Source: an uncultured delta proteobacterium (GTDB lineage Bacteria > Myxococcota_A > Polyangia > Fen-1088). From it: a DNA stretch of 64,000 nt. Shown here in pieces: positions 1 through 25,700 of the stretch. The position numbers and the translations under genes were made by a program. The number at the start of each line of letters is the position of its first letter. The first letter of the stretch is position 1. The notes under the pieces were generated by a model. The model saw only the letters and a list, made by a program, of their open reading frames with translations, had not been told where the DNA came from and made no database searches. The stretch lies in contig CAWCMR010000013.1 in assembly GCA_963796685.1 (NCBI GenBank), forward strand, positions 544,001 through 608,000, read 5' to 3'.

Positions 1-449
1 CCGTCGATGTCCGCCAGCAGCGGCACCTGGATGAGGGGCTCCGCGCCGATGGCGCGCGCATACGCCACGGCCTTGTCGAATTGGGCATCGTCGAAGGGAT
101 CGGCCATGTTCGCGTCGTTGTTGTACCCGCCGACGCGCATGATGGCCGGCCGAAGCGGGGCGATGGCGGCCTCGGTCCCGCTGACGTCGTCCTCGTAGCT
201 CGGCATCCAATTCCAGTAATTCACCGACAGGGTCGTCGTGCGTGGTTTGCGGGTGGCGGCCGACACGACGATGGTGCCGGTGGCAGGCTGGACAGCGCTG
301 TCGGGGATTCCACCATCGCTGCTCGCGAGTGGCTGGCTCGAGCAGGCCGCGACTTCGGCGAGAAGCAAGAGTCGGCAGGCGTAAGGCAGTCTCCGTTTGT
401 GAGTGTTCGGTGTTCCCGTTCCATTTACATCAAAGGCAAGCTTGGTCAT
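1..449 (-). CDS. Putative glycoside hydrolase (clan GH-A-like TIM barrel) lipoprotein, 5' part; runs off the window start
   Basis: Not in the ORF track; translated by hand from ATG 449 with an AAGGAG RBS upstream: MTKLAFDVNG...RLLLLAEVAAC-SSQP...TLSVNYWNWMPSYEDDVSGTEAAIAPLRPAIMRVGGYNNDANMADPFDDAQFDKAVAYARAIGAEPLIQVPLL. It has a lipobox-like VAAC and the 'RxGG...D.F...AR.IGAEP.IQV' pattern typical of GH44/GH51/GH79-type barrels. Confidence 0.7.
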   Translation of the reverse strand, partial: MTKLAFDVNGTGTPNTHKRRLPYACRLLLLAEVAACSSQPLASSDGGIPDSAVQPATGTIVVSAATRKPRTTTLSVNYWNWMPSYEDDVSGTEAAIAPLRPAIMRVGGYNNDANMADPFDDAQFDKAVAYARAIGAEPLIQVPLLADID

Positions 450-532
450 GATCACTATCTCTCCTTGTTCTTTCGTGCAGACGGAATCGCCTTAGCACCG
501 CCTCGGCCACCATGGATACGAGCAACGTCAAC

Positions 533-549
533 AGCAATAGCCATGCCAA
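533..549 (-). promoter_or_regulatory. sigma54 (-24/-12) promoter upstream of the GH-like gene
   Basis: Minus strand reads TTGGCATGGCTATTGCT, i.e. GG-N10-GC, nearly matching TGGCACRNNNNTTGCW. It is intergenic, about 85 bp upstream of ATG 449. Confidence 0.75.
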
Positions 550-593
550 TAGGAGGATTCTGCTGTCACCGGCGAGTGCCCCGCTCTGCCGAA

Positions 594-1514
594 TTACTTG
601 TTGACGAGGTACAGATCGTCGATCCAGAAGTCGAAGGTGAGCGATGGTGCTCCACCGGCACATTTGAAGTTTGGATTTGTCGCGCAGAACGGCAGATCGA
701 CCTCGAAAAGGATGCCGTAAACGTGCTTCGAATCGAGCACGCTAGGATCGGGTCGGTAACCCCAGGTCGGGTTCTGTTGAAGGCTTGGGAAATCTATCGT
801 GTACCGCGTAAGCGTGTCCGTCAAAGCGACTGCGATGCCGAACCCATTGTAGCAGGCGCCATCTGTGCTTGGATCCGCGGCGTTGCAGATGCCGCCTCGT
901 GGATCGGTATTGATGTCCCTGAGCTGAACAAGGATGGTCTTGGCACCGGCGCTATCGGCCATCCCCCAGAACGTTATGCCCGAGTACGCGCTGAGGTCTA
1001 CCGGAACACTCGGAAAATCGAGGCTACTGCTCTGTGTGCACGGTTGCCCACCGATCGAAACACCGGCGTCCAGCCTGCCAGAGAGATCTGCCTGGCCGCC
1101 GTCGCCACTCGGCAGCTGGGTAAAATCGATCCCCATCAACGCCCCCCAGATACCGACCAGCGGCGAAGTGGTGCGCAGGCGAGCGGCGTGGGAGCTGGTG
1201 ATGCCCGGAAAGGTTTCGTTGGGAGTGGAATAGGCTGCATAGAACCAACCATGTGGATCGACAGAATGCGGAACTGGGGAGATGCGCTCACCCTCGGTGC
1301 AATCGGTGTTGGTCCACCAGGTTCCGGGAGGCACGCCGGGGAGTGCCACCCACTGAATCGATCCACTCTCTCCCTCCATGTCATCGATCTTCGTGTAGCC
1401 GGCCTGCGCACTGTCGTTGCTCGCCTTTTCGCTCGAACAAGACCCGGCGCACACAAGCAGGGAGACCACCAGGATCGCCCGTTCGGTGAGCATCTGGACG
1501 ATCATCATCGCCAT
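594..1514 (-). CDS. Lipoprotein with CBM11/CIA30-like carbohydrate-binding beta-sandwich
   Basis: Lipobox-like LLVCAGSC; motifs KIDDMEG, VDLSAYSGITFW, YTIDF..LQQ...WG and FDFWIDDLYL. Confidence 0.7.
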   Translation of the reverse strand: MAMMIVQMLTERAILVVSLLVCAGSCSSEKASNDSAQAGYTKIDDMEGESGSIQWVALPGVPPGTWWTNTDCTEGERISPVPHSVDPHGWFYAAYSTPNETFPGITSSHAARLRTTSPLVGIWGALMGIDFTQLPSGDGGQADLSGRLDAGVSIGGQPCTQSSSLDFPSVPVDLSAYSGITFWGMADSAGAKTILVQLRDINTDPRGGICNAADPSTDGACYNGFGIAVALTDTLTRYTIDFPSLQQNPTWGYRPDPSVLDSKHVYGILFEVDLPFCATNPNFKCAGGAPSLTFDFWIDDLYLVNK

Positions 1515-1515
1515 C

Positions 1516-2202
1516 CTACTGCAGGCTGATGGTGTCGACGTGCAGGACGAACTTCCCCGATTGACCGTCGGGCAATTGTGCGTCGACCGTGAACCGAATG
1601 CTGTCGACTCGTCCCAGACACGCCACCGGTCCCCCCTTGATGTGCGTCGCTAGCCAAGGGGGCGAATTGAAGCCGTTCAGCTCCAGCGTGAACGACTGCC
1701 AATAGCTCTTGTAGTCCACGCCCTGATTGACATACAGGTCACCTGGCAAAGAGCCATCCTCGGTACGCGCAGTGGTGCAGCCGATTTCTACGTACATCAG
1801 TGCGTTGCTTGGGATAGGAGGGTTGCCCGATTCGAGCTTGGCGCTGAACTGGATCCTACTAAAGCGTGTGAAGTCCTCGGACGCGCCCGTGTAGGTCGAC
1901 GTAGCTATGCTGGCACCGCCGTGTTGCTGCGTTCCATCTGGCGGGTCCACAATGTTGGCCTGCAAGAACAGCGAAAAACTACTCTGATCACCGGCGTCGT
2001 GATCGCAGTTGCATTGGTTCGTGTTCGGGTTGTACGCGTCGCACCACCAGGCTTGAAAGTTCGGGTCGGCGGGTCGCAAGTCGCCGTCGTCGAAATCGTC
2101 GATGATGTAGGGTCCCGGGTCGACGGTATGAACGTCGAAACAGCCGCCAGCACCGAGCACGGCCAGCAGGAGCGGGAGGTTCAGGGCGGCCCGGCTCACC
2201 AT
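1516..2202 (-). CDS. Second CBM11/CIA30-like lipoprotein
   Basis: Signal peptide LLLAVLGAGGC; motifs IIDDFDDGD, DFTRFSRIQFSAK, WQSFTLEL and FVLHVDTISL. The start ATG 2202 overlaps the end of the upstream gene. Confidence 0.65.
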   Translation of the reverse strand: MVSRAALNLPLLLAVLGAGGCFDVHTVDPGPYIIDDFDDGDLRPADPNFQAWWCDAYNPNTNQCNCDHDAGDQSSFSLFLQANIVDPPDGTQQHGGASIATSTYTGASEDFTRFSRIQFSAKLESGNPPIPSNALMYVEIGCTTARTEDGSLPGDLYVNQGVDYKSYWQSFTLELNGFNSPPWLATHIKGGPVACLGRVDSIRFTVDAQLPDGQSGKFVLHVDTISLQ

Positions 2203-3332
2203 GTGCTGCTCCATGCGACGTTGGCCGATGCGCCTCCGCCCCACCCGAAGGAGATCTCGCTTGCTTGACGTCCGTGCGTGTGATGGAGGTAGAGCAACGC
2301 GGCGCCTGCGGCCACGAGCGTCCCGCTGGCGATGGACAAACCCAAGATGACATGGTTGGTGCGAGTGAGCGATGCCGCAAGCGAGTTATTGGCGTCGGCG
2401 CGCTCGCGGTACGCGGCGGTCCCGATGGTGTCGTTCTTGAGCGCGGCGTCTCCGGCCTGCCAGTCCTGGTACCGTCCGCGATTCCACAGGTAGACCCCAA
2501 GCGCCGCACCACCGAGCGCCACGCCCAAGCCAGCGGCGGAATAGCCCACGATGGCCATCGTGCGTCGTCGATCTTGGGTGTTGGGCTCGGGTCGTTGCTC
2601 AAGTATTGCAACCGACGGTGCCTTGGCATTTGCCGGGGGCACAGATTGTGCGGGCAGGGCAGCAGGAGGCACCTGGGCCGACGGAGGCTCAGCCTTCGCG
2701 ACTTTCGCTGCCGCTGCGGGCGCGGTGGGCATCTCCAGGCTCAACACCTGATAGTCGCCCGGCGCGAGGGTCACGGTTCGATTGATTGCGGCCATTCCTT
2801 CCATGGCCGCGGAGACCTTGTGCGTTCCGGCTGCAAGTCTAACCGGCTGGTAGAGCGGCGTACGCCCAACCTCGGTTCCATCGACCCCAATTAGAGCTCC
2901 GGGTTGGTCAGTGGTGATGGTCAGCTCGGCAAAAAGCGACTCGAGCAGCGCAATTTGAGCCTGCACCGCCTGGCGCCGATCCGGCGGAACCTGCTCCTGA
3001 CCATCGCGCAGGTACTTGGAGAGGCTTTGGACCGCTTCCGCGGGACGGCCCAGCGCGAACTCGGCCTGACCTATATTGTAGAGGACGGCAAAATTCGGGC
3101 TGACCTGGTAGGCCTCGGTGAACTCTTGCAACGCACCTTCGTAGTCGGCCTGGCCTGCCAGCTCGAGTCCCCGGGCGAAGTGTAGTCTTGCAGCCTCGCG
3201 CGCATCCCCAGATGACTGCCCGGCGGTTGACTCCTCGGTCGCTCTTGCTGAAGTCGACCAGCCCAACACGGTCAGCAGGATCACCGGAATCCGCGACATA
3301 AACACCTGTTGGAAGTAGTCAGCACGTCCCAT
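2196..3332 (-). CDS. Secreted TPR + PEGA domain protein
   Basis: Signal peptide (alternative start 3299, MSRIPV...ARA); TPR (AARLHFARG...ALQEFTEAY...VLYNIGQAE); PEGA (GALIGVDG.EVGRTPL...GTHKV); Pro/Ala linker; two hydrophobic segments; C-terminal beta-strand ending in W. Confidence 0.8.
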   Translation of the reverse strand: MGRADYFQQVFMSRIPVILLTVLGWSTSARATEESTAGQSSGDAREAARLHFARGLELAGQADYEGALQEFTEAYQVSPNFAVLYNIGQAEFALGRPAEAVQSLSKYLRDGQEQVPPDRRQAVQAQIALLESLFAELTITTDQPGALIGVDGTEVGRTPLYQPVRLAAGTHKVSAAMEGMAAINRTVTLAPGDYQVLSLEMPTAPAAAAKVAKAEPPSAQVPPAALPAQSVPPANAKAPSVAILEQRPEPNTQDRRRTMAIVGYSAAGLGVALGGAALGVYLWNRGRYQDWQAGDAALKNDTIGTAAYRERADANNSLAASLTRTNHVILGLSIASGTLVAAGAALLYLHHTHGRQASEISFGWGGGASANVAWSSTW

Positions 3333-3338
3333 GCCACC

Positions 3339-4802
3339 TCAGTTTCCATACGGATTCTGCGTGTCGAACGTGACTCGCGCCGCGCGCGCATCGGTGGCAC
3401 CCGGGGGCGGAACGGCAAGCGAGGGTGCGGGCGCCGGGTCCAGAGATCTTCTCGGACGTCCGGCTGGACGTCCAAACGGACGTCCGCCGTGGCTCCGTGC
3501 GAGCCTCGGACGAACATCCGCCTCTGATGCTCGATCAGCGACTGCCGTTGACGCCTGACCGCTCGCATTGCGTTCCTTGCCTTCTCTGTTTTCCCGCGGC
3601 ATCGATGGCGCTGGCAAATCCAAGGAACGAGCTGGTGGAGGAACTGCAAGTTGGGCTTCTTTGGGCTGGACGCGATGGCTCGCGGATTCGGCGGTAGCTG
3701 CCGTCACGTTAGAGTGTTGGGACCTTCGCGCTGCCATCGTCATCGCGATGGCGGCAACCGCGACCAGTCCGGCACTGACCGCGAGGATGATCCGCGGACG
3801 TCGGGGCTTTCGCGGTGGCTGTGCCGATGCGGGAATGGTGGCGGCGTCGAAATCGGTCGACCGCCAGCCTGGCGTTGGGGACGCCGCGCGCACAGCCGAT
3901 ACAGTGTCCATGCTCTTCGCCGAGGGCCACACCTCCCGCTTCGCGAACGGTGCCAGCTCGAGCTCCAACGCCTCCACGGAGGCGTGACGTTGATTACGAT
4001 CGCACGACAGCGCGCGCTCGACCGCATCCACGAGCACCCCGGGCAGATCCGGTTGCACAGCATGCAGGGACAGTGCCGGTTGCGTGGCGATATGGTGCAA
4101 GACCGCGTTGTGCGAATCGCCCGGATGGGGCGGCTTGCCCGAGAGCATCTCGAACAAGATCGCCGCCAGTCCGTAGACGTCGGTCCTGTGATCGATGCTC
4201 TTGTCGCCGCGCGCCTGCTCGGGTGACATGTACGCCGGGGTTCCGAGGATGGTTCCGGTGCGCGTGGCCGCGCTATTGAGCTCGACCTGTTCCAGCTTGG
4301 CAATGCCGAAGTCGAGCACCTTGACCAGATCGGTCCCGTCCTCGCGCCGACACAGAAACAGATTCTCTGGCTTGAGATCGCGGTGGACGATGCCAGCGGC
4401 ATGGGCCGCCATCATTCCGCGACAAGCCTGCAGGCAAATGTCGACGGCCCGCCAAACCGAAAGGCACCCTTCGCGCGCCAGCAAGGATCCCAGGCTTTCA
4501 CCCACCAGGTGCTCCATGACGAGGTACGGCGTGCCGTCGGCAAGAATGCCGAAGTCGATGGCTGCCGCGATGTTTTCGCTTTCGAGCGCTCCAGCGGCCT
4601 GGGCCTCGCGATGAAACCTGGTCAGGAGATCGCGGCGGTCGGCGAGATCGGGGCGAAGGAACTTGACGGCAAAACGTCGCTTGACCACGGCGTGCTGGGC
4701 CTCATAGACCACCCCCATTCCCCCTTCCGCGATCAGACGAAGGATGCGGTACTTGTCCCCGACGAGCTCGCCCACCCGGGTGGTCTGCGACTTGGTGCTC
4801 AC
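3339..4802 (-). CDS. Membrane-anchored Hanks-type Ser/Thr protein kinase
   Basis: Motifs EGGMGVVY, AVKFL, HRDLKPEN, DFG, GTPAYMSPEQ and DVY; TM segment IILAVSAGLVAVAAIAM; Pro/Ala tail ending DTQNPYGN. The GTG start at 4802 overlaps the upstream TGA (GTGA). Confidence 0.95.
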   Translation of the reverse strand: MSTKSQTTRVGELVGDKYRILRLIAEGGMGVVYEAQHAVVKRRFAVKFLRPDLADRRDLLTRFHREAQAAGALESENIAAAIDFGILADGTPYLVMEHLVGESLGSLLAREGCLSVWRAVDICLQACRGMMAAHAAGIVHRDLKPENLFLCRREDGTDLVKVLDFGIAKLEQVELNSAATRTGTILGTPAYMSPEQARGDKSIDHRTDVYGLAAILFEMLSGKPPHPGDSHNAVLHHIATQPALSLHAVQPDLPGVLVDAVERALSCDRNQRHASVEALELELAPFAKREVWPSAKSMDTVSAVRAASPTPGWRSTDFDAATIPASAQPPRKPRRPRIILAVSAGLVAVAAIAMTMAARRSQHSNVTAATAESASHRVQPKEAQLAVPPPARSLDLPAPSMPRENREGKERNASGQASTAVADRASEADVRPRLARSHGGRPFGRPAGRPRRSLDPAPAPSLAVPPPGATDARAARVTFDTQNPYGN

Positions 4803-6196
4803 CGCCCAGCCTCCTTGCGCGCTTGCTCTTGCTCGCGCAACCCCTCGAGATCGACAGCTTGGCCCTCCATCAAGCGGTAGGCACGCTGGCGCGAGATCCC
4901 CAGCATCGCCGCCGCGCGAGCGACGTTGCCACCCGAGGCGCGCAAGGCGGAGACCAGCGCCGGAAGCTCCACGGGTTCGAGCGGCTCCGCCTTGATGGCC
5001 GCCTTTGGCGGGCCTGGAAGGGGCCGAGCCGTTTCGGCCGTCACCGTTTGGGTTGGCGACGGGGTGCCGATTCGCCCCGGCAGGTGGGATGCCTTCCAGG
5101 TCGATTCGCCACCGTGCAAAACCATGAGCCGGCGAACGAGCAGCAGGAGCTCGCGGACATTGAACGGCCAGTCGTGGAGACACAGCCGCTCGACGAGATC
5201 GGCTTCGACCGACGGCACCGCCCCCTCTCCCAGCTCGGTCAAGAAATGGGAAAACAGCGGCGACACATCCTCGCGCCGGCTACGCAGCGGCGGCAAGTGG
5301 ACGGTCACCCCGTCGAGCCGCGCCAGCAGATCGGGTCGGAAGCGACCCTGGCGCGAAGCCTCCAGCAGCGACTGCTGCCCCGCGACCACGACGCGGACAT
5401 CGATCGGGATCGGACGGATCTCTCCCAGCGGTTGGACCTCGTGCTCTTCGAGCACGCGCAGCAGCTTGGCCTGCAACGGAAGGGGAAGATCCGTCACCTC
5501 GTCGAGCAACAAGGTTCCGCCCTCGGCGCTGCGGAAGAATCCCGGATTCGGCTTGTCCGCGCCGGTGAAGGCACCGCGCCGATACCCGAACAATTCACCC
5601 TCGGCCAGCGCCTCGGGCAACGCCGCGCAATTGACGGCCACGAGCGGGCCCGAGCGCCCGCTCCACTTGTGTAAACTGCGGGTAACAACCTCTTTTCCGG
5701 TTCCAGTCTCGCCTTCGAGGATGACGGGCAGATCGCTCGAAGCAGCTCGCTGCAACGGCGCCAACACCGACTGCAGCGTCGCGCCTCCGTACAGACCGGG
5801 GGCGATCTCCCTCCATGCACCACGCCCCGCGGTTACCACGCCCAACCAGCCGCCGAGACGAACCACGTCCCCTCGACGAAGAGGGGACGCGGATACTCGC
5901 TGCCCGTTGACCCAAACTCCGTTGCGGCTGCCTAGATCGACCACCTCGACGCCAAGACCAGCGGTGTCTTGGCGCAGAGAAGCGTGGCGGCGTGAAACGT
6001 CGTTCCCCAGCAGATGAATGGGACATCCTTCCTCGCGCCCGACAATCAGCTCTCCCGCATTCGCCCATCCCAAACCAACCGCTGGTTGGGACGGTTGTGG
6101 GAACATCCAGGTGAGCACCATGTCCAACGAGTTGACCTCGCTCCGCGAGCTTGCGCTGGTCGTCGCCACCGTCGTATTGCCCGCACCCGATCCCAT
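4799..6196 (-). CDS. FHA-domain sigma54-dependent enhancer-binding protein (FHA-AAA+-Fis HTH)
   Basis: FHA motifs (VGR...VSRRHA...DLGSRNG); Walker A GETGTGKE; GAFTGA; LLLDE; WPFNVREL; C-terminal HTH GNVARAAAMLGISR. Confidence 0.93.
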   Translation of the reverse strand: MGSGAGNTTVATTSASSRSEVNSLDMVLTWMFPQPSQPAVGLGWANAGELIVGREEGCPIHLLGNDVSRRHASLRQDTAGLGVEVVDLGSRNGVWVNGQRVSASPLRRGDVVRLGGWLGVVTAGRGAWREIAPGLYGGATLQSVLAPLQRAASSDLPVILEGETGTGKEVVTRSLHKWSGRSGPLVAVNCAALPEALAEGELFGYRRGAFTGADKPNPGFFRSAEGGTLLLDEVTDLPLPLQAKLLRVLEEHEVQPLGEIRPIPIDVRVVVAGQQSLLEASRQGRFRPDLLARLDGVTVHLPPLRSRREDVSPLFSHFLTELGEGAVPSVEADLVERLCLHDWPFNVRELLLLVRRLMVLHGGESTWKASHLPGRIGTPSPTQTVTAETARPLPGPPKAAIKAEPLEPVELPALVSALRASGGNVARAAAMLGISRQRAYRLMEGQAVDLEGLREQEQARKEAGR

Positions 6197-6391
6197 ACCG
6201 GTCCCTAATTGGGCTCAAGGGAATGAAGAAACACACCCATCCGCGCAATGCTGACATTCCGCACGCCACCGTGCCAGCCGGAACCAACACCCGTTGGCAG
6301 GTCACGTTGGCCGGAAGGGGCCGCGGGCGGGCATCCGGGCTACGCGACAGGCGTCCTACGCTTCGGTAAGCGCTTCGTCCTACGATTCCTC

Positions 6392-8434
6392 CTACGATTC
6401 GTCGAGCGCTTCGTCGAGCACCTCGCGCACCTTGCACCGCAGGTCGTTCAGAGTGAACGGCTTGGTGATGAGGTGTGTTCCGGGATCGAGGGCTCCGTGG
6501 TTGTCGATGGCCTCGCCGGTGTAGCCCGACATGTACAGGATCCTGACATCCGGCCGTGCCTTTGCCAGTTGCTCCGCGAACACCCTGCCGCCCATCTCGG
6601 GCATCACCACGTCGGTCAGGACAAGATGAATCTTTTCCGACCTCTGTTCGCACATGCGGAGCGCCTCGATGCCATTCGAGGCCGCCAGCACGGTGTAGCC
6701 GGCGCGGGCCAACACTTGTTTCGCCAGATCGCGGACCGCAGGTTCGTCCTCGACGATGAGGATGGTTTCGTCGCCGGTCGTACGCACGGCGATCTGCGAG
6801 ATGGCGGGCGACGCCTGCTGGATGGCCGACTCGATGCGGGGCAAGAAGATCTTGAACGTCGTCCCCTTGCCGAGCTCGCTGCGGACAAGGACTTCCCCGC
6901 CGCTTTGCCGGACGATGCCGTAGACGGTCGACAAGCCGAGCCCCGTTCCCTTGCCGCGCTCCTTCGTAGTGAAGAACGGCTCGAAAATGCGCTCGCAGGT
7001 CCTGGCATCCATGCCACAGCCCGTGTCCGAGACCGCCACCATGACGTAAGGGCCTGGCTTGACCGTCGAGCCACCGAGGATGAAAGCATCGTCGAGCTCG
7101 ACGTTGGCGGTCTCGATGGTCAACCTGCCGCCGGTGGGCATGGCGTCGCGGGCATTCACCACCAGGTTCATGAGTACCTGTTCGATTTGGCTTGGGTCCG
7201 CCATCACGAAACCGAGATCGGGCGCAAGCGAAGGCACGATGGCGATGTCTTCGCCAAGAATGCGGTGGAGCATCTTCTCCAATTCGGTGGCCACGCGATT
7301 CAAATCGAGCGCCACGGGCTGCAGGATCTGCTTGCGACTGAATGCCAGGAGCTGCCGAATCAAGGTCGCGGCGCGGTCGGAGGCCTTCTTTACCTCGGCC
7401 AGTTGATGCCAGCGCGGATCCCCTTCGTCGGTGGCATCGAGCACGAGATCGGTGAAGGTCCCGATCACGTACAGCATGTTGTTGAAGTCGTGGGCGATGC
7501 CTCCAGCCAGGCTACCGATGGCTTCCATCTTCTGCGATGTGCGCAATTGATCCTTCAGCCGTTCGCGCTCCGTTTCCGCTTGCCTGTCCTGCGTGACATC
7601 CCTGACGACTTGGGCCAGGGAGACGACCTCGCCGTGCTCGTCCATGGTGGGCCATGCGACCAGGCTGTAGTACCTGCCGTTCTCTTCGTACTCGCCCATG
7701 CACGGTCTGCGTTCGGCGATGGATTGCAGGCACGGACAGCCCGCAATGGGGAAGCTCCTGCCATGCATCAGCTCGAAGCACTTCTTCCCCAGGATCTCCT
7801 CCCTCGGCCGAGCGAGCGCCAGGCAGCCGGCATGGTTGACTTCGAGGATGTCGTGCTCGCGTGAAAGCACGAACACCATGTCCGTGATGGCATTGAAGGT
7901 ATTGCCCCAATTTTCATTCGAGCGACGCAGGGCCGCCTCGACGCGCGTGCGCCCGGCCAGCTCCTTCTCGAGCTCGCGGGTGCGGAGCGCGACCTGCTCT
8001 TCCAGGTGTTCCTTTACCAGGCGCTGCATGCGATTGGCGGCCTTGAGCTTGACCATGGCCCGCAGCTGCGCCACCAGCTCCTGGTCGTTCCACGGCTTGC
8101 TCAAGAAGCCCTCGGCGCCAAGCTCAAGGGCCATCACCCGGCTTTCTTGATTGGTCCCGAGCGCGGTCAGGAAGATCACCGGAATATCCTTCATTCTTTC
8201 GTCCGCCTTGAGCCTGCGGCACACCTCGAAGCCGTCGATGTCCGGCATCACGATTTCGAGCAAGATCGCGTCCGGATCCTCGGCCCTGGCAATCTCGACG
8301 CCCGTGGCGCCTTCGAATGCGATCAACAATCGATAGCTGGGCAGGGCCTGGCCAAGCACGGCCTCCAGGGCGATGAGGTTGTCGCGGCGGTCGTCGATGG
8401 CGAGAATCTTGGGTCCCTTGGCATCCATGCGCAT
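6392..8434 (-). CDS. Hybrid sensor histidine kinase REC-PAS-HisKA-HATPase-REC
   Basis: H-box AGGIAHDFNN, N-box NLVVNARDAM, DTGCGM, FFTTK, GTGLGL; C-terminal REC with TDVVMP; N-terminal REC with LLEIVMP. Confidence 0.93.
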   Translation of the reverse strand: MRMDAKGPKILAIDDRRDNLIALEAVLGQALPSYRLLIAFEGATGVEIARAEDPDAILLEIVMPDIDGFEVCRRLKADERMKDIPVIFLTALGTNQESRVMALELGAEGFLSKPWNDQELVAQLRAMVKLKAANRMQRLVKEHLEEQVALRTRELEKELAGRTRVEAALRRSNENWGNTFNAITDMVFVLSREHDILEVNHAGCLALARPREEILGKKCFELMHGRSFPIAGCPCLQSIAERRPCMGEYEENGRYYSLVAWPTMDEHGEVVSLAQVVRDVTQDRQAETERERLKDQLRTSQKMEAIGSLAGGIAHDFNNMLYVIGTFTDLVLDATDEGDPRWHQLAEVKKASDRAATLIRQLLAFSRKQILQPVALDLNRVATELEKMLHRILGEDIAIVPSLAPDLGFVMADPSQIEQVLMNLVVNARDAMPTGGRLTIETANVELDDAFILGGSTVKPGPYVMVAVSDTGCGMDARTCERIFEPFFTTKERGKGTGLGLSTVYGIVRQSGGEVLVRSELGKGTTFKIFLPRIESAIQQASPAISQIAVRTTGDETILIVEDEPAVRDLAKQVLARAGYTVLAASNGIEALRMCEQRSEKIHLVLTDVVMPEMGGRVFAEQLAKARPDVRILYMSGYTGEAIDNHGALDPGTHLITKPFTLNDLRCKVREVLDEALDES

Positions 8435-8531: not shown

Positions 8532-9470
8532 CTACGTCAAGAGCCAGCCCCTAACAAGGCGCGCCATGGCCGAAGGCACGAGGGGCTGATAGGAGCGAAG
8601 GTTGATCTCCTCGCGGCGAAACCAGGTGCGCTGCCGGCGAGCATAGGCCGCGGTGGCCGATTTGATGTCGGCCACGGCCGCCTCCAAGGTCGAGGCGCCG
8701 TCGAGATACGAGCCGAGCTGCTTGTAGCCGAGCGCCTGCATCGAGCGCGCGGCGGCAAAACCGGCCGTGCGCAAGGCACGGACCTCGTCGAGAAACCCGG
8801 CGGACATCATGTGGTCCACACGTGCGGCGATGCGCACACGCAAGGTATCCATGTCGAATTCGAGGAGCACGGAAAAGAGCCGCACCGGCGCAGGCGGAAC
8901 CGCCTTCTTGCGCCGCTGTTCGCTGATGGTGACACCGGTTTGCTCGTACACCTCCAGCGCGCGGCTGATACGCACGAGATCGCCGGGGAGGATTTTCGCG
9001 GCGGCCTCCGGATCGATGACGCGCAGTCGCTCGTGCAAGGCCGGGACGCCTTGTCTTCCGGCTTCCTCCTGATGGCGAGCGCGAATCGCCGGGTCGGGTC
9101 GTGGCGCCTCGAAGAGACCCCGCACGAGCGCCCGATAGTAGAGCCCCGTGCCTCCCACGACGATGGGCAGGCGTTCGCGCGCCTCGGCGTCTTGGATGAG
9201 CGTGCTTGCGGCCTTGGCCCACGCCGCGGCGTGAAATTGTTCGTCGGGCGCAACCAGATCGAGAAGGTGATGGGGAACCGCCGCGCGCTCCGTGGGCGTG
9301 GCCTTGGCCGTGCCGATGTCCATCCCGCGATAGACCTGCATCGAATCGCAGCACAGGATTTCGCCGCCCAGCCGTTCGGCCAGATCGAGAGCCAGCGCGC
9401 TCTTGCCCGAGGCCGTCGGGCCGAGAATCGCGACCGCGGGGGGAAGGCGGTGCGACCTGCCGGCCGACAT
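8532..9470 (-). CDS. miaA: tRNA dimethylallyltransferase
   Basis: Motifs GPTASGKS, DSMQVYRGMDIGTAK, VGGTGLY and YARRQRTWF. ATG overlaps the mutL stop (TGATG), the classic mutL-miaA pair. Confidence 0.96.
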   Translation of the reverse strand: MSAGRSHRLPPAVAILGPTASGKSALALDLAERLGGEILCCDSMQVYRGMDIGTAKATPTERAAVPHHLLDLVAPDEQFHAAAWAKAASTLIQDAEARERLPIVVGGTGLYYRALVRGLFEAPRPDPAIRARHQEEAGRQGVPALHERLRVIDPEAAAKILPGDLVRISRALEVYEQTGVTISEQRRKKAVPPAPVRLFSVLLEFDMDTLRVRIAARVDHMMSAGFLDEVRALRTAGFAAARSMQALGYKQLGSYLDGASTLEAAVADIKSATAAYARRQRTWFRREEINLRSYQPLVPSAMARLVRGWLLT

Positions 9471-11341
9471 CAGGTTCGCCCCAGACGCTGCTCGATCTCG
9501 GCCACGGGCATGCGCAGAAGCACCGGACGCCCGTGCGGACAATGCGAGCGCAAATCCACGCCGTCGAGCTGGACGAGCAGCGCCAGCGCCTGTTCGCGGC
9601 TAATCACGTCGCCGGCGCGCAAGGCGCCGTGGCAGGCCATGGTCGCGAAGACCTTGTCGAAGCCGGCTTGAGCAAGCGTGTCCTGCGCGTCGCCGGTCAG
9701 CCCGGAAATCACGTCGAGCAGGAGAGGCTTGGGATCGACCTTCTTGAGCAGGTCTGGCACCGCGCGAAGGAGCAAGGTCTTGGGCCCGAAGTCCTCGACT
9801 TCGAAGCCAAGCTGACCGAGTGCCATCAGCGCACCGCCTTCGCGCACCGCCGCCATGGCCAGCTCGTCGATCTCGATGGGAATGGGAAAGAGCAGACGCT
9901 GGCGCGCGACCTGGCGCTGCCGATGAGACTGGCGCAGCCGCTCGAAGGTCACGCGTTCGTGGGCCGCGTGCTGGTCCACGATGACGAGCTCGTCCGCGGT
10001 TTCGCAGATGAGATAGGTGCGATGGATCTGCCCGATGTACTCCAGGCTACCGAAGAAGCCACCCGCGGCAGAGGGCGACTCGGGCGCCTCCCCGGATGCG
10101 CCACCTGCCGTCTCTCGCGGTGGCATTTCCCGCGGCAGATCCAGCCCCTCCACGGTGTGGGCGAGCCCCCGCGCTCGGGCTTGCGACAACGAACGCAAAG
10201 GCTCTTGCCAACCGCGGCTCTCCGTTTTGACTTGTGCCGGGACTGTCGCCTCGCCTGCGCCATCCACGCCAAGGTCCAGCCTTTCGGGCGGCAAGGTGTA
10301 CGCCCGCAGCGGGGCCGGTGGTAGCCACGGGGCGCGTGCCACCGCCGCGCCGACCACATGGCGAACGGCGCCGTACACTTCCTGCGGCCGGGCGAAACGC
10401 ACCTCCAGCTTCTGCGGGTGGACGTTCACGTCGAGCTCCTGCCCCGGCACATCGACGAAGAGCGCGGCCAGGGGGTAGCGCCCCTTCTCCAGAAGCTCGC
10501 CATATCCCATGCCGAGCGCATGGAGCAGCGAGCGGTCGCGCACGAAGCGCTTGGCGACGAACAAGAAGGTCGAGCGCGGCGTGGCTGACGCTTCTTCCGG
10601 GGCGGCCAGAAATGCTCGCACGACCACACCGGCTTCCTGGCCTTGGGCCTCGTGCAGCAGGCTTGCCCCGCGGCGGGCCAGGGCCGCGCGCACCCGTTCG
10701 CCCATGTCGCGATGGGGAGGCAGATCCAGCACCACCCGGCCGTTGCCGCGCAATCGGAAATGGATCTCGGGGTGGGCGATGGCCAGGCGAAGGACGGCCT
10801 CGGCCACATTGGCCGCCTCGGTGGCCTCGGACTTCATGAACTTGAGGCGAGCCGGGGTGTTCCAGAACAGATCGCGCACCTCGATCTGGGTACCGTCGGG
10901 CATGCCCACGTCGCCGCTGCTGGTCTCGATCCCCGCCTCATAGCCCAAGCTGAAGCCGGCCGTGCTGCCCGGGCGCTTGGTGCGCAAGGTGAGCCTCGAC
11001 ACCGCCGCGATGGATGGCAAGGCCTCGCCGCGAAAGCCGAACGTGGTCAGCCCCCACAAGTCGTCCGGGGATAGGATCTTCGAGGTGGCGTGCCGCAGCA
11101 GCGCCAAGCGTGTTTCCTCGGCGGTCATGCCGCCGCCGTCGTCCACCACGCGAATGAGGCGCCGGCCGCCGGCATCGATTTCGATGTCGATGCGGCGGGC
11201 CCCCGCATCGATGGAATTTTCGGCCAGCTCCTTCACCACCGAGGCTGGACGCTCGACCACCTCGCCCGCCGCGATCTGGTCCGCCAGCGTGCGCGGCAAG
11301 ACGTGAACGCGCGGCGCGGGCGACGACGATGAAGTCTCCAT
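9470..11341 (-). CDS. mutL: DNA mismatch repair protein MutL
   Basis: Motifs IAAGEVVERPASVVKEL.ENS.DA, GFRGEAL, DVNVHP.K, endonuclease DQHAAHER, ACH and CPHGRP. Confidence 0.97.
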   Translation of the reverse strand: METSSSSPAPRVHVLPRTLADQIAAGEVVERPASVVKELAENSIDAGARRIDIEIDAGGRRLIRVVDDGGGMTAEETRLALLRHATSKILSPDDLWGLTTFGFRGEALPSIAAVSRLTLRTKRPGSTAGFSLGYEAGIETSSGDVGMPDGTQIEVRDLFWNTPARLKFMKSEATEAANVAEAVLRLAIAHPEIHFRLRGNGRVVLDLPPHRDMGERVRAALARRGASLLHEAQGQEAGVVVRAFLAAPEEASATPRSTFLFVAKRFVRDRSLLHALGMGYGELLEKGRYPLAALFVDVPGQELDVNVHPQKLEVRFARPQEVYGAVRHVVGAAVARAPWLPPAPLRAYTLPPERLDLGVDGAGEATVPAQVKTESRGWQEPLRSLSQARARGLAHTVEGLDLPREMPPRETAGGASGEAPESPSAAGGFFGSLEYIGQIHRTYLICETADELVIVDQHAAHERVTFERLRQSHRQRQVARQRLLFPIPIEIDELAMAAVREGGALMALGQLGFEVEDFGPKTLLLRAVPDLLKKVDPKPLLLDVISGLTGDAQDTLAQAGFDKVFATMACHGALRAGDVISREQALALLVQLDGVDLRSHCPHGRPVLLRMPVAEIEQRLGRT

Positions 11342-11357
11342 GCCGGCCAAGGATATC

Positions 11358-11458
11358 ACCACAGAGGACACAGAGGACACAGAGGCCGGAGAAGAAGGGG
11401 TTTCCGGATCCGAATCCGAACTATCCCCACTTCGTCCGAGCTCTGTGTCCTCTGTGGT
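11358..11458. repeat. Palindromic CACAGAG element with 18-bp perfect inverted repeats and 9-bp tandem units
   Basis: ACCACAGAGGACACAGAG (11358-11375) is the reverse complement of CTCTGTGTCCTCTGTGGT (11441-11458). The element sits between rlmE and mutL. Confidence 0.85.
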
Positions 11459-11480
11459 TAAACTCCGGATCCCGCGAACG

Positions 11481-12089
11481 CTATCGCTTCGCTGGGCCGA
11501 AGTTCTTGCCCACGAGGTAGAGCTCGCTGCTCGTCTGGCGCGAGGCTTCGGGTTTGAGCAGGCGCACGTCGGAAAAGTGGTCAGCCATGCGCTTGCGCAG
11601 CCTATCGACCTCCGGGCTTTGGAAGACCTTGGCCACGAACGCCCCCAGCGGTGCGAGCAGTCGCTCGGCGCGCAGCAGCGCTTCCTCGACCAGACCGGCC
11701 GAGCGCGCCTGGTCAGTGGCGCGAATGCCGGTGGTGTCCGGCGCCATGTCCGACAGCACCACATCGTACGCCGCCAACCCGCAAAGCAATTCCTCGTCCG
11801 ACAGGGTGTAGATGTCGGCCTCGATCACGTGGGCGCCGGGCACAGGAGAGGGCAAGGGCAGACGGTCCACGCCCACGACCTTGCCGTATGGGCCCACGGC
11901 CTTGCACGCGTACTGCATCCACGAGCCCGGCCGGCAACCGAGGTCGAGCACGCGCGCGCCAGGGTGAAACAGGCGCACGCGGCGGTCGATGTCCTCGAGC
12001 TTGTACACGGCACGCGCCGCGAAGCCCTCGTTCCGCGCCTTGCGGAAAAAGGCGTCGTGGCGGTGCTTGCGGTCGCGGAGCTGGCCCAC
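11481..12089 (-). CDS. rlmE: 23S rRNA Um2552 methyltransferase RlmE/FtsJ
   Basis: Motifs ARAVYKL, VLDLGCRPGSW, VLSDMAP, FVAKVF and KPEASR..SSELYLVG. Confidence 0.93.
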   Translation of the reverse strand: MGQLRDRKHRHDAFFRKARNEGFAARAVYKLEDIDRRVRLFHPGARVLDLGCRPGSWMQYACKAVGPYGKVVGVDRLPLPSPVPGAHVIEADIYTLSDEELLCGLAAYDVVLSDMAPDTTGIRATDQARSAGLVEEALLRAERLLAPLGAFVAKVFQSPEVDRLRKRMADHFSDVRLLKPEASRQTSSELYLVGKNFGPAKR

Positions 12090-22719: not shown

Positions 22720-25700
22720 TCAAGGGATGATGATCTTGCACGTGGCACTGCAGTTGCCACCGCTGTCGCACTCTTCGCCGTACTGCGACTGAATCCGGCC
22801 GTCGCCGCAGTAGGGCGCCCAGGTACAGAACGACGTGCATATACCCGGGCCGTAGGCGGTCGCCAGCGTCACGTTGGCGGCGCCAAAATCGCACTGCTCG
22901 GGGCCGTTCTTGATGCCGTCGCCGCAGTAGCCGGGCAGCGTGCAGTCGGGCGAGCAGGTCCCGTAGCTGCCGTTGTTCACGCCGTTGTCGCATTGCTCGC
23001 CGGGATCCTTGACGCCGTTGCCGCACTTGAACCTGCAGTTGACATCGCAGGCGCTGGCCGGGGTGCCGTTGCTGGCACCGTCGTCGCATTGTTCGGGTGG
23101 ATCCACGACGTTGTTCCCGCAAGATGGCAGCGGCACGAAGCCCTTGCAATCGGGCGAGCAGGAGCCGGGCAGGCCGCTGTTGACACCGTCGTCGCACACC
23201 TCGCCGAACTGCCCCTGCACCTCTTTGTCGCCGCAGTACGGGGCGGGTTCGCACTGGTTCGTACACAGGGACCGACCGTAGGCCGTGGCGCTGTTCATCG
23301 CGCCCAGGTCGCAAGCCTCGGTTCCGTTGACCACGCCATCGCCACAGTAGGGCGCCCAAACACAACCGGGAGCGCACGTACCGTAGGTGCCATCGTTCTT
23401 GCCGTCATCGCACTGCTCGGGACCATTCTTGACGCCGTCGCCGCAGTACGGACCGGAGGTGCACTGCGGGGTGCACATGCCGTAACCGCCGGTGTTCAGC
23501 GCCACGCCGTTGTCGCAGTCCTCCCCAGGATCGAGGAGGCCATTGCCGCACTTGAAGGTGCAGGTGCTCGTGCACTTGCTTCCGCTGGTGCCGTTCTTGG
23601 CGCCGTCGTCGCACTGCTCGGCGCCGTTGATGACCCCATCGCCGCAGCGCTCGCCCAGCGTACAGGCGGCCGTGCAGTGTCCGTAGCCGGCACCGTTCAG
23701 GGCGCCCTCGTCGCACTCCTCACCGTTCGACACGACCGCGTCGCCGCAGTACGGAGCCCACCGACAGCTCGGCCCGCATTGGGTCGAGGTCCCCCCATAA
23801 GTCGCGAGATTCACGCCGTCGTCGCATTGCTCGGGCGGGTTCTGAACGACCTTGTCACCGCAGCGGGGCGGCAGGGTGCAGTCCGGATTGCAGGTCCCGT
23901 AGGCGCCGGTGTTGTTGGCGGCGCCAAGGTCGCAAGCCTCTCCACGGGTGACGATACCGTCGCCGCACACGCTGTGGCACACGCTCTTCGGGGCATTGAA
24001 CCCGCTGAGCGTCAGCTTGTAGTTCGAGGCGATGACGTGCCGCTCGGCCTGGAAGACGACAATCTCGTAGATGTTGCCTGGCACCATACCGAAGCCGCCC
24101 ACGAAGGTCGTGCAATTCGCCGGTGCCGGGGTATCGCACACGGACTGCCCGGCACACGCCGGCGGAGTGTCGTCGGCGCAAGCCTGCGTGCTCGTCCCAT
24201 TGAGAGTGACGATGCCGCGCAACTCGTTGTGGATACCGCCGAGATCGACCGCGAGCTGGCCGTTGACGAAGACCCAGACGTCGTCGTCACCACGGAACTC
24301 AAGCTGTTCGCCACCGCCGTACTGAAACCAGTAGTGCGCCTCGCTGGTGAAGTTGTAATTGTGAACCAAGGTGGGGTTGGTCGCAGGGTAGTTGATGTTT
24401 CCGAACCCCAGACCGTCCAGAGGGAAAAACGCCGAGCTGTAGTACTGATAGGTTCCGGTGCCGATCTGATTCAAGGTCAGGGTGCTTTGGATCGTGACTC
24501 GGGTGACGGCGGGGTTGGCCGCATCTACCGATGGGTTGCCCGTGGCATTGGGATCGTCGGTGTACCACTGGGCATAGTTGGACGCGACTTGCGCGGCACT
24601 CAGGGATGCCGTGTTGCTGGAGGGCTTGGTGCGGAAGGTGGCACCGGTGGCGTCGCTCATGAGCGTGTCGCTGGTGCTCGTGCTCATGGCCGGCCCATCC
24701 ATGGTCCAAGGCCGCCCGAGCGATGTGCCGGCATTGTTTCCGATGTAGGCCGCGTTGAAGGCCGGCTTGCCATCCACGCCGATCGCGCTCTCGGCGATGC
24801 CCACCTGTCGCTGATCGTAGACAGGACTGACCTCGAACTGCGGGTGGTGCCAGTTGAAATCGCGATACAGGATGGGCACGGTCAGCGTGGTGCCCAGGGC
24901 AGGCGCCGAGGCGGTGCAGGTGTAGCCCGGCTCGATGGTGCACGTCGAGGAGCAGCCGTCACCGTTTTGCAGGTTGCCGTCGTCGCACTGTTCGCCGGGC
25001 ATCTTGATGCCGTCGCCGCAGACCGAGAAACACTGGTAGGGCTGAGCCGTGTCGTTGTTCGGGTAGCCGCACTTGGGCTCGTTGGTGCACGTGGGCGAGC
25101 AACCGTCGAACGGGCGGACATTGCCATCATCACACTGCTCGGTGCCTTCCTTGTGCCCATCGCCGCAAACCGTCTGGTAGCACGCCGTCGACAAGGCCGC
25201 GGGATGCCACGTGTCGGGCCCGCAAGCGTACCCGAGCTCAATCTGACACGTCGAGCTGCAGCCGTCGTTCGAGGCCGTGTTGCCATCGTCGCATTGTTCG
25301 GTCCCGGCGAGGATGCCGTCGCCGCAGGCCTTGGCCGTACACGCCGCCGCCACCACCGGGCAGGTCCAGCCAGGCTCGAGCTGGCAGGTTGCGCCGCAGC
25401 CATCGCCCGCGACCGAGTTGCCGTCGTCGCATTGCTCGGTCCCGCTGATCTTCCCGTCGCCGCATCGAACGGTGGAGACGCAGGGTTGGTTTGCGACGGG
25501 GCACGCGTAGTCGGGCTCGATGGTGCATTGTGGGCTGCACCCATCGCCACCTTTCGTGTTTCCGTCATCGCATTGCTCGCCGGTGGTCAGATTCACTACG
25601 CCGTCGCCACAGAATTCGACGAGCGTGCACGGCTTTCCTTGCGTGGGGCAATCCCAGCCCGGCTCGGTGAGACAGGTCGACGAGCATCCGTCGTTCGAGA

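Follow-up and report, generated by a model that had tools for sequence, protein, structure and literature searches.

Gene layout and protein domains

We analyzed a gene cassette for a Ser/Thr kinase, a sigma-54 activator, a membrane protein, and two lipoproteins, which may couple the perception of polysaccharide to the expression of cellulases in uncultured Polyangia. The cassette lies at the beginning of a 64,000-nucleotide stretch of DNA (referred to as the window; G000:C13:544001-608000) in G000, a 7.3-Mb metagenome-assembled genome (MAG) with 26 contigs. An earlier reading made from the letters of the DNA (the sequence-only reading) had described five co-directional genes that overlap or abut each other. 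All five are on the minus strand and their junctions overlap or abut, but an internal sigma-54 box, designated P1, splits the set.

The first gene in the direction of transcription (4799..6196) encodes a 465-aa enhancer-binding protein (EBP) with FHA, sigma-54 AAA+, and HTH_8 domains in Pfam. It is followed by the gene for a 487-aa Hanks-type Ser/Thr kinase (3339..4802), for which Pfam and hydropathy indicate a kinase domain and a single membrane helix, followed by an extracytoplasmic tail that is of low complexity and about 130 aa long; the GTG start codon of the kinase gene overlaps the EBP stop codon (GTGA). P1 (TGGCATgggacGTGCT; 3321..3336, minus strand) lies between the kinase stop codon and the start of TPR-PEGA (2196..3332), a membrane protein with a signal peptide, TPR and PEGA domains, two hydrophobic helices, and a conserved C-terminal W-S-x-x-W motif. 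Then come LIPO2 (1516..2244) and its distant homologue LIPO1 (594..1514), both lipoproteins with a predicted CBM11/CIA30-like beta-sandwich (CBM, carbohydrate-binding module) and separated by a gap of 1 nt. The likelier start codons are an ATG at 3299 (versus 3332) for TPR-PEGA and an ATG at 2202 (versus 2244) for LIPO2, the latter overlapping the TPR-PEGA stop codon. A second box, P2 (TGGCATggctaTTGCT; 533..548, minus strand), stands ahead of a glycoside hydrolase (GH)-like lipoprotein gene, GHA, whose 5' part occupies 1..455 on the same strand and which, by contig extension, runs past the window to G000:C13:542326.

A scan with one genome per species yielded 26 loci (labeled L), all from Polyangia or Myxococcota MAGs. 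TPR-PEGA, LIPO2 (one to two copies), and LIPO1 (one to three copies) were found in the same order in 15 of the 26, beyond the window itself, and this synteny is in line with the cassette that the sequence-only reading had proposed. The EBP and kinase genes were directly upstream in 8 of these 15 further cassettes.

The EBP matched FHA (PF00498; E 5.5e-16), Sigma54_activat (PF00158; E 2.1e-54), and HTH_8 (E 6.8e-8). Its GAFTGA loop (G208-A213), Walker A motif (GETGTGKE), and helix-turn-helix (HTH) helix were invariant in 9/9 orthologues, and an rpoN gene was found on contig C8 (E 4.4e-64). With an AAA+ domain bearing GAFTGA, a C-terminal HTH domain, and both rpoN and -24/-12 boxes in the genome, the EBP has the makeup of an NtrC-type sigma-54 activator. 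It is likewise an FHA-domain protein by fold family and by conserved pocket residues: G53-R54, S68-R-R-H71, and N92-G93 were invariant in all nine orthologues and match the Gly-Arg, Ser-x-x-His, and Asn-Gly set of the phosphothreonine (pThr) pocket.

Besides, the EBP carries an N-terminal G-x-T-T-(V/I) motif about 40 residues ahead of the FHA core, in which G6, T8, and T9 were invariant in 9/9 orthologues. GarA and OdhI are FHA switches of actinobacteria, and GarA is a small metabolic regulator without an AAA+ or DNA-binding domain. The EBP resembles GarA in having a short N-terminal Thr motif about 40 residues before the FHA domain and an adjoining Ser/Thr kinase (for the PknG-GarA context, PMC6069109). 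By analogy at the level of this motif, the invariant threonines suggest a GarA-like intramolecular pThr-FHA switch. A paralogous EBP gene on contig C16 (G000:C16:50022-51441; L030) aligned in two reading frames (query residues 1-351, then 344-461), which points to a frameshift due to either an assembly error or a pseudogene.

The kinase matched Pkinase (PF00069; E 1.6e-39), contains one hydrophobic helix (residues 338-356), and has HRDLKP, DFG, and SPE motifs that were invariant in the kinase alignment; it is thus a Hanks-type Ser/Thr kinase by its motifs. Neither Pfam nor the alignment revealed a sensor or ligand-binding domain of its own. The tail ends in the peptide VTFDTQNPYGN (residues 477-487, encoded at 3342..3374 on the minus strand), the predicted TPR-docking motif, in which D480, N483, P484, and Y485 were invariant in 9/9 sequences. 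This tail motif was present in 12/13 kinases that adjoin TPR-PEGA and in 0/3 kinase-GH6 fusions, described below, that lack TPR-PEGA.

TPR-PEGA matched PEGA (E 5.1e-11) and TPR_2 (E 1.7e-8) in Pfam. It is not simply the secreted protein of the earlier description, as two membrane helices are predicted (residues 260-278 and 328-346). When residues 42-215 of TPR-PEGA were co-folded with residues 445-487 of the kinase, ipSAE was 0.61, compared with 0.08 for the best of three controls; the ipSAE mark applied here is reached by 116/157 solved complexes and by 2/215 mismatched pairs. The runs shared at least 82% of contacts with a partner pLDDT of about 50, and the interface joined TPR residues 45-93 with kinase residues 477-486. 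The model supports docking of the C-terminal end of the kinase in the groove of the TPR domain. When proteins with the kinase and TPR-PEGA fused were sought, three longer forms turned up, none with a kinase domain, a result of little weight.

Pfam and NCBIfam gave no family for LIPO1 or LIPO2 at a cutoff of E 0.1, and we compared structure models built from their alignments (pLDDT 82.5 and 86.7, respectively) with known structures. CBM11 of Clostridium thermocellum (1v0a) ranked first for both lipoproteins in two independent structure searches, that is, for LIPO2 with a Foldseek E of 1.9e-9 and a VIA-align Z of 17.0 (root mean square deviation 2.7, 160/170 residues aligned) and for LIPO1 with 3e-7 and 15.8 (2.7, 162/170); after a near-tie with CIA30/NDUFAF1, taken up below, came CBM30, CBM4, CBM22, and CBM29. 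Thus, the CBM11-like character noticed earlier was borne out at the level of the fold: as modeled, both lipoproteins have the CBM11 beta-sandwich, and glycan binding is putative. The CBM11 of Lic26A-Cel5E (1v0a, 6r3m), besides being the best match, aligns over nearly the whole module and comes from a cellulolytic context. Unlike that module, LIPO1 and LIPO2 are stand-alone lipoproteins with 14-18% identity to it and no Pfam CBM_11 match, and LIPO1 has about 100 extra residues.

The two lipoproteins are related to each other by profile comparison (hhalign probability 94.6%, E 6.7e-8), and this kinship is visible at the profile level only, as BLASTP among LIPO1, LIPO2, and GHA gave nothing. For LIPO1, 163 database homologues were found; none of the 120 matches listed has a Pfam domain, and the named homologues among them are hypothetical proteins of Polyangia MAGs. 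A class-wide sample of 401 genomes gave full-length LIPO1 matches (E < 1e-60) in the window's own family only. The C-terminal half of the protein (about residues 160-300), which bears the motifs CNxxDP...CYNGFG and FDFWIDDLY and has no Pfam model, was more widespread (95/401 genomes) and recurs as a domain of many Polyangia proteins that otherwise differ.

Between the window and L012, the closest relative, identity was 87% for the EBP, 93% for the kinase domain, 72% for TPR-PEGA, 87% for GHA, and 90% for GH6a (a hydrolase gene beyond GHA), compared with 41% for LIPO2 and 49% for LIPO1. The corresponding values were 46-48% for LIPO2 against L004, L007, and L021 and 54% for LIPO1 against L004. 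Since the lipoprotein identities are far below those of the flanks, the pair either was exchanged or diverged at a much higher rate than the surrounding genes; its phylogenetic discordance suggests cassette exchange or diversifying selection.

Sigma-54 boxes and GGACGTCC repeats

Sigma-54 boxes were sought with the consensus TGGCAC-N5-TTGCW. The near-consensus box that the sequence-only reading had placed before the GH-like gene is present: P2 (548-533) has one mismatch to the consensus, and a box following the last LIPO1 gene was found in 13/17 cassette loci, the window counted. P2 itself is kept in L012 (as TGGTACggctaTTGCT) and in L013. The window contains five boxes with at most one mismatch versus 1.97 expected, 3/100 shuffles also reach five, and P2 alone is not significant; the other four one-mismatch boxes are at 22743, 23073, and 36302 on the plus strand and 60318 on the minus strand. 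P1, for which we demanded intact GG and GC and at most two mismatches, occupies the same position in 15/15 loci that hold the kinase/TPR-PEGA junction. We rejected the possibility that the boxes arose by chance, because their positions are conserved across loci whose proteins are only 45-65% identical. A sigma-70 promoter and terminator scan of window positions 1-6700 remained at chance level, and it identified no promoter for the EBP-kinase pair. In four relatives (L004 at about 12710, L007 at about 8935, L009 at about 8917, and L010 at about 10825), the post-LIPO1 box is closely followed by TCGCAATCACGCGAGC, an imperfect inverted repeat that is conserved among them as a leader element and is absent from the window.

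Upstream of P1, three exact GGACGTCC palindromes with 12-bp spacing (3454..3485, no strand assigned) form a candidate EBP binding site, or upstream activating sequence. In 14/15 loci, the 250 bp upstream of P1 hold at least two copies, and at least one exact copy lies upstream of the post-LIPO1 box in 7/13 loci; the 10 loci without a cassette had no GGACGTCC cluster holding an exact copy. In the whole 7.3-Mb genome, only three clusters of at least two exact copies were found, two of which precede a sigma-54 box (P1 and the box of a GH6 gene on C8), the third being without a box. The C8 site (G000:C8:753962-754068, minus strand; L031 3962-4068) consists of two adjacent GGACGTCC copies followed by the sigma-54 box TGGTACgcgccTTGCT, a ribosome-binding site, and then the start codon (ATG) of a GH6 gene for a lipoprotein, and we predict that this gene is an unlinked member of the same regulon. 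A further box, P3 (L003 10117-10102), lies downstream of the window before GH6a, with one GGACGTCC copy 91 bp upstream in the window locus and three to four copies in L012 and L013. No GGACGTCC cluster and no sigma-54 box were found at an EBP/kinase-GH6 module on C16 or at a GHA paralogue on C25.

Because GGACGTCC clusters precede the P1 and GH6 boxes, the HTH helix of the EBP is invariant just as the site is, and rpoN is present, the repeats are likely to be the binding site of the EBP. TPR-PEGA and the lipoprotein genes have a sigma-54 box and GGACGTCC repeats of their own and therefore appear to be outputs of the activator, not inputs only.

The GGACGTCC copies are located inside the coding region of the kinase tail, where they encode an invariant GRPxGRPxGRP. 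This GRP repeat is fixed at the DNA level, and the nearby TFDxxNPY codons vary at their third positions; a DNA-level constraint from the adjoining promoter was accordingly rejected as the cause of TFDxxNPY conservation. A candidate regulatory DNA element thus constrains a protein sequence, GRPxGRPxGRP being fixed within an otherwise unconserved kinase tail. In L017, the kinase has lost its tail motif and is set apart from TPR-PEGA by an insertion (6799-8150), which places the GGACGTCC cluster 1.5 kb from P1.

Hydrolases and kinase-GH6 fusions

The GH-like lipoprotein gene that the sequence-only reading placed beyond P2, and that the open reading frame track had missed, does exist: GHA encodes 709 aa with a lipobox, NEP and TEMN motifs, and a C-terminal beta-rich domain. 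It reached the threshold of no Pfam family. A profile of five homologues matched GH79 (7eyo, E 3.5e-7), GH51/GH39 (about 1e-3), and heparanase (0.01), and N182-E183-P184 and T307-E308 were invariant in 5/5 sequences; in clan GH-A, the Glu of NEP is the acid/base residue. By its sequence, GHA is a candidate clan GH-A-like enzyme without an assigned family. GHA was also aligned by hhalign with the LIPO2 and LIPO1 profiles, without significance (probability 2.7% and 0.2%); hence, we retain no claim that its C-terminal domain is a LIPO-like module. In L013, LIPO1 and GHA are separated by an inserted PIN-domain gene (11022-11519).

Beyond GHA are a GH6 lipoprotein gene (GH6a), an MFS transporter gene, a Vgb-lyase-like propeller gene, and a second GH6 gene; glycoside hydrolase genes are thus present downstream of the cassette. 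The Glyco_hydro_6 matches had E values of 2.3e-63 for GH6a, 2.5e-103 for the second GH6, and 1.1e-104 for the C8 GH6; GHA, GH6a, and the C8 GH6 are all lipoproteins by lipobox. A GH6 homologue was in or beside the cassette in the window locus and in L004, L005, L007, L008, L009, L012, L013, L016, L018, and L021. In L008, L015, L017, and L021, the first gene after LIPO1 encodes an extracytoplasmic function (ECF)-type sigma factor.

In addition to the cassette kinase, we found close paralogues of it in which a GH6 domain is fused outside the membrane. P0122 (G000:C16:47653-50022, minus strand; L030:3653-6022) combines a Ser/Thr kinase domain, one membrane helix, and an extracytoplasmic GH6 domain by Pfam (Glyco_hydro_6, E 5e-52), and further fusions are encoded in L013 (3376-1037, minus strand), L016 (5160-8006), and L021 (3258-796, minus strand). 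The fusions keep the RDC and EPDS motifs, as judged by eye. The best 120 database matches to P0122 all contain PF00069 and PF01341 and are labeled only as endoglucanase or GH6 protein; among them, a C-terminal (F/L)DxxNPY end was found in 30/37 long forms (850 aa or more) versus 1/83 short forms. Modules without lipoproteins or TPR-PEGA are present beside the EBP on C16 and in L013 and L021, where no EBP match adjoins the fusion, and L016 combines a GH6 domain on the kinase with TPR-PEGA and lipoproteins. These fusions look like an unrecognized class of sensor kinases.

The findings at P2 and in the fusions bear directly on a strict linear form of the relay put forward in the sequence-only reading, in which the five genes would make up one constitutive sensor operon and lipoproteins bound to glycan would signal through TPR-PEGA, the kinase, and the FHA-EBP to the adjacent GH-like gene only. 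In its favor are the CBM11-like folds of both lipoproteins, the translational coupling of TPR-PEGA, LIPO2, and LIPO1, and two features that fit a passage through TPR-PEGA, namely, a kinase lacking a sensor domain and the predicted docking of its tail in the TPR groove; nevertheless, with P1 and GGACGTCC repeats ahead of them, the TPR-PEGA and lipoprotein genes appear to be outputs as well. The P2 box is conserved, but no GGACGTCC occurs within 260 bp upstream of it in the window, L012, or L013, and therefore we assign no activator to P2. Instead of the adjacent GHA, the clearest hydrolase targets on this evidence are GH6 genes, namely, the next gene downstream (GH6a) and the unlinked one on C8. 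Moreover, L006 keeps the repeats, P1, and the TPR-PEGA/LIPO genes without an adjoining kinase or EBP gene, kinase-GH6 modules exist without lipoproteins, and the kinase of L016 bears a GH6 domain besides TPR-PEGA and lipoproteins. We consider the strict relay unlikely.

The same loci speak to the nature of the cue. The system might respond to something other than plant polysaccharide, such as starvation, development, or the remodeling of its own or prey beta-glucan, with the GH6 and CBM-like genes being merely part of the program; after all, the fold gives no ligand identity, and FHA-EBPs of Myxococcus xanthus were reportedly met in the context of fruiting-body development (Jelsbak and coworkers, 2005). 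Yet the linkage between the cassette and GH6 genes is close and recurs across loci, sister kinases carry GH6 domains fused outside the membrane, and the second GH6, the MFS transporter, and the clan GH-A-like enzyme are in the same locus, which makes another cue quite improbable.

A candidate regulon for cellulose use

Taken together, the results computed here (gene content, folds, box and repeat conservation, the association between the tail motif and TPR-PEGA, and the score of the co-fold) make it reasonably probable that one family of uncultured Polyangia has a cellulose-utilization regulon run by a Ser/Thr kinase, an FHA-EBP, and sigma-54, in which the receptor complex is wired for feedback. 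Translationally coupled genes would give rise to the membrane kinase and the FHA sigma-54 activator, and we infer that the kinase controls the activator by phosphorylation and FHA recognition of pThr, maybe through the G-x-T-T-V motif as in GarA. The active activator would bind the tandem GGACGTCC palindromes and drive sigma-54 promoters, of which one class (P1) would serve the operon of TPR-PEGA and the CBM11-fold lipoproteins and the other the genes for GH6 cellulases (the one behind P3, beyond the window, and the one on C8); in relatives, a box is also found ahead of ECF sigma factor genes. Since the kinase has no ligand-binding domain, the TFDxxNPY peptide of its disordered periplasmic tail is predicted to dock in the TPR-PEGA groove, and the induced TPR-PEGA, probably with the co-translated CBM-like lipoproteins, would serve the kinase as its receptor or as a feedback complex. 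In this scheme, both the binding of glycan and the direction of the feedback are conjectural.

Several points weigh against this regulon. Only the coupling of the two genes and the FHA domain of the EBP connect the kinase to the EBP. The co-fold alignments are shallow (15 and 9 rows), and TPR-peptide complexes are common among solved structures, so that passing the ipSAE mark may reflect such likeness. For the lipoproteins, CBM11 is matched within 1 Z unit by CIA30/NDUFAF1 (Z 16.1 and 15.1), a protein that does not bind glycans, and their sequences matched no Pfam CBM family. As to the DNA, P2 is without nearby repeats, as described above, and single GGACGTCC copies near boxes are not enriched genome-wide (7/1855 boxes versus about 12 expected); therefore, the weight rests on the multi-copy sites alone. 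The P1 leader would be very short, and in L004 and L005 the ribosome-binding site lies upstream of the expected start site; P1 would then be the source of a near-leaderless transcript or a box with another role. Finally, the genome is a MAG of 88.6% completeness and 6.5% contamination, although the locus itself is on a 700-kb contig.

The role of the induced proteins allows a further interpretation, namely, that the lipoproteins and TPR-PEGA are effectors and not sensors, forming an envelope apparatus for cellulose binding or substrate handling that is co-induced with GH6, while binding of the kinase tail serves only as a feedback brake or an anchor. Such a role is consistent with the sigma-54 box and GGACGTCC repeats common to the lipoprotein/TPR-PEGA and GH6 genes, with the lipoprotein nature of GHA, GH6a, and the C8 GH6, and with the variable lipoprotein copy number (1 to 3); the lipoproteins also diverge faster than their flanks (LIPO2 and LIPO1 versus the EBP and kinase domain in the identities given above), as surface proteins often do. 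It would, however, leave the window kinase with no input domain at all, and the tail motif co-occurs specifically with TPR-PEGA. We hold a purely effector role to be rather doubtful, if less so than the strict relay. Within the regulon proposed here, the lipoproteins may be glycan co-sensors, substrate-handling effectors, or both.

More broadly, and only tentatively, we envisage that Polyangia have an undescribed class of polysaccharide receptors that span the membrane and have a Hanks kinase as their core, in which the extracytoplasmic input would be a GH6 fusion, a TPR-PEGA/CBM-lipoprotein complex recruited through (F/L)DxxNPY, or both. The signal would pass through a GarA-like pThr-FHA switch in a sigma-54 activator that binds GGACGTCC, inducing cellulases and its own receptor complex, with the binding site partly inside the kinase coding sequence.

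Among known regulators, FHA-domain sigma-54 activators were reportedly described in M. xanthus by Jelsbak, Givskov, and Kaiser in 2005. The M. xanthus activators, too, belong to Myxococcota, have an N-terminal FHA domain in place of the receiver domain on an NtrC-type AAA+ activator, and are presumed to be under Ser/Thr kinase control. To our knowledge, the kinases, signals, and DNA sites of the myxobacterial proteins are mostly unassigned. Here, unlike in M. xanthus, the kinase and EBP genes are coupled in translation, the sequence allows a candidate site (GGACGTCC) and its targets (GH6 and the TPR-PEGA/lipoprotein operon) to be named, and the predicted physiology is polysaccharide use and not development.

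The system resembles TonB/ECF signaling and the polysaccharide utilization locus (PUL) regulators of Bacteroidota, i.e., hybrid two-component systems (HTCS) and SusR, in leading from glycan perception at the envelope to degradative genes, a functional analogy. Some relatives, like TonB/ECF systems, have an ECF sigma gene, here behind a sigma-54 box. Searches of the five cassette proteins against Pfam and NCBIfam revealed no anti-sigma factor and no TonB-dependent transducer, and, unlike PUL regulators, the cassette has no hybrid two-component sensor.

Another functional parallel is RsgI/SigI of C. thermocellum (PMC10328401, PMC6852018, and PMC6582324), in which polysaccharide is sensed by CBM- or GH-like modules that membrane proteins expose outside the cytoplasm, and cellulase genes are induced via an alternative sigma factor. 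These features are shared with the system proposed here, whereas RsgI is an anti-sigma factor released by proteolysis that acts on SigI of the sigma-70 family; here, a Hanks kinase and an FHA-EBP would act on sigma-54, in a Gram-negative envelope with lipoproteins and a TPR-PEGA adaptor, and there is no sequence relationship to the RsgI/SigI proteins. In abstracts, listings, and one passage search, we found RsgI/SigI and general work on EBPs of M. xanthus but no description of such a circuit or of kinase-GH6 fusions.

The system offers a readable chain from a candidate input (cellulose or cellodextrin via GH6 or CBM-like modules) through a coupled kinase, a docking peptide, and a binding-site motif to a GH6 target set. 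If true, the induction of cellulases in bacteria would have a third design, in addition to anti-sigma (RsgI) control and to control by repressors or two-component systems. The system also points to a large unannotated family of kinase-GH6 fusions in soil metagenomes, labeled only "endoglucanase."

Upstream of the EBP gene, the window encodes a 680-aa hybrid histidine kinase with two receiver domains and PAS (6392-8434, minus strand) and a MiaA-like IPP transferase (8532-9542, minus strand), neither with an evident link to the cassette. No RNA runs are listed among the sequencing runs found for the genome, which are four soil DNA runs of one study with shares of 0.13-0.31.

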